Assembly (NCBI GenBank): GCA_965238225.1
Contig: OZ250183.1
Location: 1,338,264-1,402,263 of the forward strand
Length of the DNA stretch: 64,000 nucleotides
From: Gammaproteobacteria bacterium
GTDB taxonomy: Bacteria; Pseudomonadota; Gammaproteobacteria; Eutrophobiales; Eutrophobiaceae
Direction: 5' to 3'
The notes under the pieces are model-generated. The model had not been told where the DNA came from. It worked only from the letters and a program-made list of their open reading frames with translations, and did no database searches. The position numbers and the translations under genes were made by a program. Positions 30,950 to 32,740 of this stretch are shown in pieces; within the stretch, counting starts at the first letter, position 1; each line of letters begins with the position of its first letter.

Positions 30950-31301
30950 TGTCCTTAGTATTCACATTTATTAAATTCTATATCAAACAATCTAGTGTAT
31001 GAATTTATCATTATATTTACAGACTATCCTGCCATAGAAGAGATGCCATACAGGCAACAGTGAAACACTACATTAAAACGGAAAGAACATTCTTAGCCCG
31101 AACCATGCCTGCATAAAAAAGCGACAAGCCCAGAATGGTCATAAATAATACTAATTACGGTAGCCGTAATCATCCATGACGTGTGTCGCCAGCACTCAGA
31201 TCATCGGCTATGGCTAAAGATGGTGCGAGTAGCCCTGTGATTAATACATGCAGGTATGCCAGTCCTCTGTGCTTTTTAAAACTACCAATTAATGATTTCA
31301 T
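30950..31301 (-). pseudogene. amtB: amtB remnant directly downstream of glnK: N-terminal ~115 codons with in-frame nonsense codons, truncated by the neighbouring gene
   Basis: ATG at 31301-31299 with GGAGG upstream. In-frame read is MKSLIGSF…LAIADDLSAGDTRHG*LRLP*LVLFMTILGLSLFYAGMVRAKNVLSVLM*CFTVACMASLLW. Compare the AmtB motif …ADNAFMMICTALVLFMTIPGIALFYGGLIRGKNVLSMLTQVFVTFALVCILW. Confidence 0.5.
31126..31154. repeat. 29-bp direct repeat, copy 1 (aagcccAgaatggtcataaataatactaa), inside the amtB remnant; copy 2 at 32406-32434
   Basis: Identical except for one A/G. Both copies encode the AmtB LVLFMTI(P/L)GL segment on the minus strand. Confidence 0.8.
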
Positions 31302-31324
31302 CTAAAATGCCTCCCAAATTACCT

Positions 31325-31657
31325 TTAAAGTGCGACCGAACCAGTTTCGCCAGTGCGAATGCGAGTTACCTGTTGTAACTCCTGTACGAAAATCTTACCA
31401 TCACCAATTTTTTCAGTTTTGGCTGCTTTTATAATAGCTTCAATAGCTGCTTCCACCTGTTCGTCATCCAGTGCTATTTCTATTTTTATCTTAGGCAAAA
31501 AATCAACTATGTACTCTGCACCACGATAAAGCTCTGTATGACCTTTTTGCCGACCAAAACCTTTAACTTCTGTCACGGTCAAACCTTGTGCTCCAGTTTC
31601 ATGTAATGCTTCACGCACATCATCAAGTTTGAAAGGTTTAATAATTGCTGTAATCAA
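31325..31657 (-). CDS. glnK: Nitrogen regulatory protein P-II
   Basis: 110 aa: [18 protein letters not shown]…[17 protein letters not shown]…GDGKIFV…IRTGE. Intact, with the Tyr51 loop present. Confidence 0.9.
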
Positions 31658-31789
31658 TTAGCGGAAACGACTCATGAAATACCGCCCTGAGTATGCGATT
31701 AACACAAATTTTTAAACGCATTTGGAAAGAGTGATCCACGAAAAGCCGGGTGCTAAAGCACACACTTTGAGAGATGAATGATTTGAAAT

Positions 31790-32740
31790 GTCTCTGGAGA
31801 TCGAGACCTTCTATCTCTTCATCTTCACTCACGCGAAGTCCAATCATCGCATCATTAGAATATAAAAACGCCACAATATAATAGTGAGAGACAGCCACTG
31901 ATTAAAAATTTTGAACCAGGCTAAAAAACGCGCCAATAATACCACCAACGGAATGGATACCAAATACATCCGGTAACCCATCTTACGTTTAAGCGTGCTT
32001 GCAGCCTTGAAACAGCATCCCAGCAAGTGGGCCCGATCAGGCTGACTACAGTCACAACCCAGTGCACTGCTTTTGTCCATTAAAATCCATTAATTATTAA
32101 TTACAGCCATTGCCATACCACAATCAGCAGCCAAACTTAGGCAGGGTTAGTGGTAGATTATAATACTTGGGAAACTTAAATAGGCTAACCTTGCATTGAG
32201 AAACCGTAGCAAAATCAAGTATGTCGCCATGGTATAGGCTCGTCATTTCTTGTAGTCTGACGATCATAATTATTTCATTTCAGGAATTGCAATCAGCTGG
32301 CCATACCAAAACCGCCCCAGAAGCTAATCTGACTATATACATATAAAACCCAGTATTGTTACAAACTTCAAAAATTGCTGATAAAATTTGCGAACCAATA
32401 AAACCAAGCCCGGAATGGTCATAAATAATACTAAAGTGATTTTGTTCAGACAATAAAAGAGTCCTGTGATTCAGTAATGCGATCTAATCCCAAATTCTAG
32501 AACCAATAATGCGAGTTATTCTGTACGATTCATCAAAATGCTGGATTCATCACAAAAACAGTACTCTGAGAGCCATGAAATTGAAATTTGAAGAAATTGC
32601 GCGACAGGTTCTGGATAAACTTCCATCTGATCTTGGCAAAATACAGTCACAATTTGCTTGTCTAAAAATTATTATTAATATACATAACAATAACTTAGGC
32701 AAAAAGTGCGTCATTTATTTTTTTGATGCATTTTAATAAA
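31790..32740 (-). pseudogene. Second, heavily decayed glnK-amtB copy: fragments of glnK 3' half (~32500-32740), amtB N-terminal region (~32250-32440) and amtB C-terminal region (31790-31985) in different frames with internal deletions
   Basis: Minus-strand reads LVLFMTIPGLVLLVRKFYQQFLKFVTILGFICI*, then DGLPDVFGIHSVGGIIGAFF… and …HYYIVAFLYSNDAMIGLRVSEDEEIEGLDLQRH, matching the AmtB DVFGVHGVGGIVG and GLRVxEExExEGLD motifs. FLPK plus a shared 'tttttgcctaag' 12-mer and 'aactcgcat' match glnK. Track ORFs 31638..31898 and 31844..32080 are pieces of this. Confidence 0.45.
32406..32434. repeat. 29-bp direct repeat, copy 2 (aagcccGgaatggtcataaataatactaa)
   Basis: See copy 1. The two copies are 1,280 bp apart in the same orientation, flanking glnK. 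Confidence 0.8.

Follow-up and report, generated by a model that had tools for sequence, protein, structure and literature searches.

How did a single open glnK frame come to lie between two wrecked amtB genes, and can anything at this locus still work? The question is raised by a 64-kb stretch of DNA (here called the window) from an uncultured gammaproteobacterium. What is left there derives from an ammonium-uptake locus of two operons, still intact in related bacteria but decayed here. Very probably, pair-1 sequence was copied by gene conversion into pair 2 of two old paralogous operons, and this conserved nitrogen locus was then wrecked by deletional decay.

About 20 uncultured gammaproteobacterial relatives share the gene order comM / ubiK / porin-like gene / glnK1-amtB1-glnK2-amtB2 / cNMP-rhodanese / aroE, the porin-like gene beside ubiK being of the Gcw_chp type. 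The remnant sits at the same position, between ubiK/comM and cNMP-rhodanese/aroE, with the strand and order of the (glnK-amtB)x2 array found in relatives whose flanking genes are 73-78% identical. This synteny confirms an earlier note, made from the sequence alone, in placing an ancestral double array here; the note had also taken it for a duplication that arose in this lineage, which fails. Since ~20 relatives have an identical gene order, the double pair was inherited, and AmtB1 and AmtB2 (~58% identical) are old paralogues forming separate clades found in many genomes. Gene order shows that the ancestor carried glnK1-amtB1 and glnK2-amtB2 between ubiK with its Gcw_chp porin-like neighbor and the cNMP-rhodanese gene. 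The four-gene set is incomplete here: both amtB genes are relics, one mosaic glnK is left, and GlnK queries find no glnK1, which has been deleted outright. From ubiK to the cNMP gene there is 1.63 kb, whereas the two pairs of the relatives take up about 3.5 kb. Neither amtB copy retains a continuous frame of ~400-450 amino acids with 11 transmembrane helices, and there is no AmtB-like sequence beyond the two relics within the 64-kb window. With both copies reduced to relics, the ammonium channel is absent at this locus, as had been claimed. Pair-1 relics were also sought in two single-pair relatives (L006 and L013), and none were found there.

On the reverse strand, the remnant begins with the amtB1 relic (31783..32557), which retains about 0.77 kb of ~1.34 kb. 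Islands 80-95% identical to the relatives' amtB1 are split by deletions and frame changes, and the 5' ~100 bp (32557-32436) are weakly recognizable. The fragments encoded in its several frames, DVFGIHSVGGIIG...GLRVSEDEEIEGLD, include a C-terminal piece matching positions 361-394 of the 399 in the Pfam profile Ammonium_transp (PF00909; E=3.6e-5). In tblastn the relic is closer to AmtB1 than to AmtB2 (9e-13 versus 9e-5 with the L005 proteins), and its nucleotide blocks are collinear with the relatives' amtB1 and then with the amtB1-glnK2 spacer. A second, upstream amtB copy in several frames and with deletions is thus present, as first described. What remains of the amtB1-glnK2 spacer (31658..31782, reverse strand) was recognized from collinear blocks and from an alignment with 14 relatives. 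It holds a degraded terminator hairpin (~31765-31738), a conserved leader block (31714-31697), a decayed TGCAC-N7-GTGCA dyad, and a 5-codon mini-ORF (ATGAGTCGTTTCCGCTAA, 31675-31658); the glnK2 Shine-Dalgarno site and ATG-AAA have been deleted from its end. Promoter and terminator scans of the region gave matches at chance level.

The glnK frame (31325..31657, reverse strand) is open over 110 codons. Its product matches positions 3-102 of the 102 in the Pfam P-II profile (PF00543; E=1.5e-31) and PDB GlnK/PII entries over residues 3-112 (E=1e-45 to 3.5e-52), and over these same residues shares 70% identity with E. coli GlnK. The PII hallmarks are kept: the T-loop with Tyr51, the B-loop motif T-x3-G-D-G-K-I-F, and R101/R103. 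At B-loop position 84 the protein has E, where 50 of 57 homologues have G. This G84E change was considered as a sign of damage and rejected, since E, N or D occurs in the other seven, so that E is tolerated. The frame opens at a TTG (the ancestral Leu3) that abuts an in-frame TAA, with no purine-rich site before it, while the ATG-AAA of codons 1-2 and the GGGAGA Shine-Dalgarno site, present in 14 of 14 relatives, are missing. The gene had been called intact: an open PII frame it is, but without the start codon and ribosome-binding site of a complete gene, and of mosaic origin.

Downstream, the glnK-amtB spacer (31302..31324, reverse strand) is of pair-1 type in nucleotide alignment (identity 0.77-0.85 to pair 1, 0.27-0.37 to pair 2) and carries GGGAGG 8 nt before an amtB ATG. 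An AmtB N-terminal match follows it, and the downstream amtB start with its own GGAGG is real. This amtB 5' relic (31032..31301, reverse strand) matches Ammonium_transp at profile positions 8-48 of 399 (E=6e-6) and a relative's AmtB1 in tblastn (E=4.6e-28). Codons 1-67, with the signal peptide MKSLIGSFKKHRGL..., are amtB1-type in nucleotide alignment, and codons 68-92 are amtB2-type. A +2 insertion (~31183) and a +1 insertion (~31156) bound a shifted stretch of nine codons, and the TGA (31172-31170) and TAA (31157-31155) previously reported as in-frame nonsense codons both exist but lie within that stretch, out of the ancestral frame. A third lesion turns CAG into TAG at 31070-31068. The relic had been estimated at ~115 codons, but homology stops after about 92, at a deletion junction near 31031 (31028..31035, reverse strand). 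In an alignment with amtB2-cNMP spacers from 10 relatives, amtB2 codon ~92 is joined to the 5' flank of the cNMP gene at about -95; the ~1.2-1.3 kb deleted held the remainder of amtB2, its terminator, and some of the spacer. The final ~90 bp leading up to the cNMP gene belong to that gene's conserved 5' flank, not to amtB. The direct repeat linking the two relics also holds, its length corrected from 29 to 30 bp, of which 29 are identical. Both copies lie on the reverse strand: one (31125..31154, LVLFMTILGL) is an amtB1-type segment of the downstream relic, and the other (32405..32434, LVLFMTIPGL) is the amtB1 relic's own, 84-90% identical to the relatives' amtB1.

The DNA at 32550-32714, taken by the earlier note for the 3' half of a second glnK, has another source. 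GlnK queries find no match there even at permissive settings, and the shared 12-mer offered as evidence scores E=0.45 in the window, which is chance level. The segment belongs to ubiK (YqiC/BMFP family), which lies on the forward strand upstream of comM and co-oriented with it, so the supposed relic sat on the wrong strand. Of a "single PII gene" left after erosion, the open glnK frame stands, and the second relic as placed does not. The broken ubiK (32573..32961) was located by tblastn with the UbiK proteins of nine relatives (E=1e-27), and when its fragments are rejoined they match Pfam BMFP (PF04380; E=3e-22). The N-terminal fragment (32579-32646) and C-terminal fragment (32786-32961) are separated by 139 bp with stop codons, in which blastn maps ubiK's own upstream promoter-like motif GATTTTGTTACAAT (32756-32769). 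The order is thus permuted: N-terminal fragment, own upstream region, C-terminal fragment. A mobile element or a glnK fragment was considered for this insert and rejected, since part of it matches the relatives' ubiK upstream region; the window holds no second copy of it, only 11-13-mers at chance level.

The glnK frame and the downstream amtB relic are both mosaics of the two pairs. The first ~60-90 nt of glnK are glnK1-type (over nt 1-60 they match glnK1 at 84% of positions and glnK2 at 63%), and the relation is reversed from nt 150, with nt ~150-330 being glnK2-type. At diagnostic sites, codons 5-21 are glnK1-type in six of six cases, and those from codon 59 are mostly glnK2-type. Further on, 31346-31100 is again pair-1 type (identity 0.73-0.85, versus 0.27-0.64 to pair 2), and 31100-31030 is pair-2 type (0.69-0.81, versus 0.47-0.69 to pair 1). 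Every switch point falls in a stretch of similarity between the paralogues, which is what homologous exchange would produce. Donor-type blocks in a recipient-type backbone, with boundaries in homology, are what gene conversion leaves, and the mosaics point to a conversion of pair 1 into pair 2 that would have preceded the decay. Two patches would have been copied, one from glnK codon 3 to about codon 25-50, and the other beginning at the glnK end and running as far as amtB codon 67. This would have produced a mosaic glnK and a mosaic amtB, and conversion into pair 2 explains why 30 bp of amtB1 sequence are now present twice. The porin-like gene and glnK1 would then have been deleted, amtB1 eroded by many deletions, and ubiK rearranged and broken. 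More recently, the mosaic amtB presumably gained its two small insertions and its nonsense codon, after which about 1.2-1.3 kb would have been lost in a single deletion that spared the promoter region of the cNMP gene. Finally, the mosaic glnK would have lost its Shine-Dalgarno site and first two codons. We infer this order; no intermediate genome was found, and the nearest relatives are 73-80% identical to the window in flanking protein, with none above ~80% protein identity in the genome, metagenome, and protein collections searched.

Could the same remnant have arisen otherwise? Two conversion patches need four boundaries, and cycles of duplication and deletion could yield the same mosaic. 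Unequal crossing-over, or tandem duplication followed by deletions (template switching), is an unlikely though serious route to the same end state. The permuted order of the adjacent ubiK is a signature of tandem duplication followed by two deletions, and the amtB1-type pieces are circularly permuted around glnK as well. Still, a single crossover in glnK or amtB would give a 1-to-2 chimera but lose the intervening DNA, and the order observed (pair-2 leader, glnK1, glnK2, pair-1 spacer with amtB1, amtB2) would need several crossovers. Fewer steps are needed with two patches of conversion, or with a single tract that was repaired patchily. A simpler history, in which a single glnK-amtB unit was tandemly duplicated in this lineage and merely eroded, leaving relics of both copies of each gene, is improbable. 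It would account for the two amtB relics and their near-identical 30-bp repeat, and where the relics overlap both are amtB1-type, just as a recent pair-1 duplicate would show. Yet the array is common to ~20 relatives and its pairs are old paralogues, and the surviving unit is glnK2-type in its leader and in the 3' half of glnK and amtB2-type in codons 68-92, so it is not a plain copy of pair 1; in addition, the second glnK relic required is ubiK DNA. That the damage is a sequencing or assembly artefact, with continuous amtB genes in the real genome, is very improbable indeed. The source is apparently an assembly of metagenome type, and read errors can produce small indels, but the ubiK-cNMP interval is shortened, the missing DNA runs to kilobases with mapped junctions, and paralogues only ~65% identical at the nucleotide level are too divergent for an assembler to collapse. 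Conversion of pair 1 into pair 2, followed by decay, remains the preferred reading.

Does the stranded glnK still work? From its sequence, we put its expression at roughly even odds. That it encodes a working orphan PII protein, with translation starting at the TTG and with non-AmtB targets as the reason for its retention, seems a little less than an even bet. The frame has come through 110 codons without a stop or frameshift while flanked by two wrecked genes, with its T-loop, B-loop, and arginine hallmarks in place. At the lesion density of the amtB relic (three per 276 bp), the 333 bp of glnK should hold ~3.6 lesions, and a lesion-free frame has a probability of ~0.03. The 5-codon mini-ORF has GGCGG 6 nt before its ATG, and since its TAA directly abuts the TTG, termination-reinitiation is conceivable. 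Some relatives also keep a third glnK without amtB directly downstream. Against this, the native Shine-Dalgarno site and ATG-AAA are gone, the dyad upstream, which relatives conserve, has decayed, an upstream promoter-like site is absent (such sites being no commoner in the region than chance), and the protein carries seven lineage-specific substitutions, more than any relative, though its branch is longer. The pN/pS of glnK (0.19, versus 0.10-0.14 in relatives; JC-corrected dS is saturated) looks constrained, but the clearly dead amtB 5' relic scores about alike (0.06-0.32, versus 0.04-0.17 in relatives), so the ratio cannot tell a live glnK from a recently dead one and was dropped as a test of ongoing selection. 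The more specific proposal, that the mosaic glnK is still made through reinitiation at the TTG after the leader ORF and acts as an AmtB-independent PII signal protein, is tentative and rather doubtful.

The damage had also been likened to decay in host-restricted lineages. The source contig is 1.72 Mb, versus chromosomes of 2.1-2.75 Mb in relatives, and GC content is 39.5% versus 42-45%, which are only hints of reduction. Because the remaining syntenic genes that were checked, which span about 18 kb (window ~20.2-36 kb), are full length, decay is local in this window and confined to one ~2.2 kb patch. Open reading frames of at least 90 amino acids cover 86% of the window, and Rfam and tRNA scans of it returned just two tRNAs, far from the locus.

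This is a case of ordinary gene loss resolved in unusual detail, and current understanding of PII/AmtB biology is unchanged by it. The bacterium, an uncultured gammaproteobacterium, no longer encodes ammonium uptake at the one locus that provides it in all known relatives; if its genome has no other transporter, a nitrogen supply other than scarce external ammonium is indicated. The locus illustrates cleanly how paralogue exchange can be followed by deletional decay, and how a sequence-only first reading can misassign DNA. If glnK is still made and acts as such a signal protein, this ~1.7 Mb genome, from which both linked ammonium channels are gone, would offer a natural experiment on PII uncoupled from its oldest partner.

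A report on Haloferax mediterranei, which has amtB1-glnK1 and amtB2-glnK2, calls paired GlnK/AmtB genes widespread (PMC3831643), and Rhodopseudomonas palustris, with GlnK1 and GlnK2, is another two-pair genome (PMC12093980). The relatives of this window likewise carry two pairs, which are adjacent and in the same orientation. As these reports present them, both pairs are functional in the two organisms (PMC3831643; PMC12093980), whereas in the window the channels are pseudogenes and the regulator is a paralogue mosaic. As in the E. coli glnK-amtB operon (b0450-b0451 type), a PII gene is followed by a ~23-30 bp spacer and an ammonium channel gene with a signal peptide, and the relic's AmtB N-terminus is 38% identical to E. 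coli AmtB residues 9-81. Unlike in E. coli, what remains of the channel gene is 92 damaged codons, and start codon and ribosome-binding site are missing from the PII gene. With pseudogene decay in reduced or host-associated genomes, the locus shares small deletions, frameshifts, stops, a deletion bias, and a source contig smaller than the relatives' chromosomes, but here a single ~2.2 kb patch is affected and about 18 kb of flanking genes are intact. Gene conversion between tandem bacterial paralogues is a general phenomenon, as in tufA/tufB. Here too, paralogue-diagnostic blocks alternate, with switch points in conserved stretches. What differs is the later destruction of the donor copy, which leaves the converted patches, in a pseudogene relic, as the best-preserved record of the amtB1 5' end.

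All features of the glnK-amtB locus lie on the minus strand, where a PII/GlnK reading frame (31657-31325; Pfam P-II, E=1.5e-31) is flanked by decayed AmtB-derived fragments, as the earlier note had proposed and as Pfam and tblastn matches on both sides bear out. Upstream of glnK, the middle and C-terminus of AmtB are matched by fragments in different frames (Pfam E=3.6e-5; tblastn E=9e-13). Downstream, AmtB N-termini are matched by a frame beginning MKSLIGSFKKHRGL..., whose ATG follows GGGAGG and is placed 23 bases 3' of glnK (Pfam Ammonium_transp E=6e-6 over profile positions 8-48 of 399; E=4.6e-28 in tblastn with the AmtB1 of a relative). 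A search for further AmtB-like sequence throughout the 64-kb window returned none.

When the window's cNMP-binding/rhodanese protein (30940-29891) is used as a probe, a common neighbourhood is found in about 25 genomic and about 25 metagenomic loci of uncultured Gammaproteobacteria, the nearest being 73-80% identical in this protein. The close-clade order is comM(-), ubiK(-), a Gcw_chp porin-like gene, glnK1, amtB1, glnK2, amtB2, cNMP-rhodanese, aroE, and dctM(-). This order and the two amtB relics confirm the claim of an ancestral double glnK-amtB pair, now without a channel at the locus. The duplication was not, as had been thought, made within the lineage: inside a single genome AmtB1 and AmtB2 share about 58% identity, against 72-88% between orthologues, and neighbour-joining places them in separate clades that each take in many genomes. 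The double pair is therefore inherited and old. Among more distant relatives, some (L012, L020, L022-L025, and L033) have three glnK genes at the locus, with one orphan copy between the two pairs, and in many the first transporter, in pair 1, is a divergent Amt with about 30% identity to E. coli AmtB and no signal peptide. In relatives L006 and L013 the sole pair is the one adjoining the cNMP gene, and no pair-1 relic was found in either. Among loci L003-L048, a conserved dyad, TGCACAcTAtcTGTGCA, and a second block containing GCACCA are located 55-75 nt upstream of glnK2, and a strong GGGCGCTTCGGCGCCC-T-run terminator directly follows amtB1 in the relatives. These elements suggest that each pair forms a transcription unit of its own under the control of a regulator.

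The amtB1 relic proper (32435-31783) is collinear with the relatives' amtB1 in nucleotide alignment, and weak similarity reaches up to about 32557. It consists of islands at 80-95% identity with deletions between them, and of 1.34 kb about 0.77 kb is left. The relic passes into the amtB1-glnK2 spacer, in which the relatives' terminator hairpin is degraded but recognizable (~31765-31738) and a conserved leader block survives (31714-31697). Both halves of the TGCAC-N7-GTGCA dyad conserved among relatives are mutated; in our reading this dyad may resemble NtrC sites.

On the other side of the relic, a second glnK remnant had been placed at 32550-32714. GlnK queries find nothing there, even with the word size set to 2 and the E cutoff at 10, and the 12-mer shared with glnK has E=0.45 in the window. 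Instead, UbiK (BMFP family) proteins from nine relatives align to the plus strand. This is a broken ubiK (YqiC/BMFP family; 32573-32961), directly upstream of comM in the same orientation, with N-terminal (32579-32646) and C-terminal (32786-32961) fragments which when joined match Pfam BMFP at E=3e-22. The 139 bp separating them have stop codons and include the gene's own upstream sequence with a promoter-like motif, GATTTTGTTACAAT; in relatives of the same N-terminal type this motif, GATTTTGyTACAAT, precedes ubiK. Such a permuted arrangement would fit a small duplication in tandem with two later deletions. ubiK, too, is therefore dead. UbiK N-termini in relatives come in two alternatives, MELPNK... 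and MKNEFKFEE..., and a remnant of the latter lies just upstream of the annotated ubiK start in one of them (L038:3438-3480), so the 5' end of the gene has been remodelled more than once in the clade. Between ubiK and amtB1, the expected Gcw_chp gene and glnK1 have left no trace. The relatives have the Gcw_chp gene (PF09694) between ubiK and glnK1 (L005:5424-6170 and L003:3591-5808, compared with window ~32560-32575), and L003 and L043 additionally encode a Sel1-repeat membrane protein of 468 aa at this position; the whole window holds no trace of either gene.

The description of glnK as intact proves incomplete. Its frame is open, with 70% identity to E. coli GlnK across residues 3-112, PDB GlnK/PII matches with E down to 3.5e-52, and all PII hallmark residues retained (G84E is not diagnostic and was dropped as a telling sign). 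In 14/14 relatives glnK2 starts with GGGAGA, 8-10 nt, and ATG AAA TTA..., whereas the window reads ...TGAGTCGTTTCCGC TAA TTG ATT ACA...: the Shine-Dalgarno and first two codons are missing, so that the frame now begins with the ancestral Leu3 codon, a stop lying immediately 5' of it. The coding sequence is a glnK1/glnK2 mosaic. Over nucleotides 1-60, identity is 84% to glnK1 versus 63% to glnK2, and codons 5-21 are glnK1-type at 6/6 diagnostic sites; glnK2-type sequence takes over at about nt 150 (identity 0.69-0.80 versus 0.54-0.74).

The mosaic continues downstream. From the last codons of glnK to amtB codon 67 the sequence is pair-1 type (0.73-0.85 versus 0.27-0.64 to pair 2), and the AmtB1-specific signal peptide lies entirely inside this stretch; codons 68-92 are amtB2-type (0.69-0.81 versus 0.47-0.69). 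The reported TGA and TAA are present but not plainly in frame, since they lie in nine shifted codons bracketed by +2 and +1 insertions; there is also a CAG->TAG change at 31070-31068. Homology stops after codon ~92, where the cNMP gene's conserved 5' flank begins about 95 bp before its ATG. This junction marks a single deletion of about 1.2-1.3 kb, to which the remainder of amtB2 was lost together with its terminator and part of the spacer. The direct repeat encoding the same AmtB segment was also found, at 30 bp and 29/30 identity (31125-31154 and 32405-32434). It is amtB1 sequence: one copy belongs to the amtB1 relic, the other to the pair-1 patch within pair 2.

The odds that the window glnK still works are roughly even. 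A clean frame between two wrecks favors a working gene, as does a short ORF (5 codons, with GGCGG as a weak SD-like site) that terminates exactly at the glnK TTG, but the native translation signals and the upstream dyad are lost. The pN/pS of glnK against orthologues is 0.19, versus 0.10-0.14 among relatives. However, the dead amtB fragment next to it appears equally constrained (0.06-0.32 versus 0.04-0.17 in intact orthologues), so that this ratio says only that death, if any, was recent.

The other genes in common with the 21-kb loci of three relatives (L003, L005, and L008) are all full length in the window. Full-length genes include apaH, apaG, comM, the cNMP gene, aroE, dctM, and dctQ, as well as rsmA-like, pdxA-like, surA-like, and lptD-like genes, and 86% of the window is covered by ORFs of 90 aa or more. 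One stretch of about 1 kb (3316-4336), which separates glmS from a small Hpt-like ORF, contains no ORF longer than 84 aa and matches neither Pfam, in any of the six frames, nor Rfam; it may be non-coding or represent a further decayed gene. An Rfam HPnc0260 match at 14305-14443 (+) scores 61.3 bits versus a gathering score of 59; it overlaps a tRNA-Val on the opposite strand and is probably a tRNA-antisense artefact of the model. GC content is 39.5%, while the close clade has 42-45%. For the window's cNMP-rhodanese protein, an identical protein is on record from a single contig of 1,722,049 bp (NCBI/ENA), and since related complete chromosomes measure 2.13-2.75 Mb, the source genome appears smaller. 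Lower GC and a smaller contig hint at genome reduction, but do not prove host restriction.

On the most economical account, the locus went through three stages. An inherited two-pair array would have received pair-1 sequence into pair 2 by exchange, either as two patches or as one patchily repaired tract; the boundaries all fall in regions of paralogue similarity. Deletional decay would then have followed, and the much heavier erosion of pair 1 and its upstream neighbours places their decay first. Inactivation of the mosaic amtB, which shows only three small lesions in its surviving 276 bp and the pN/pS given above, would have come later. Gene loss with conversion between paralogues is a well-known phenomenon.
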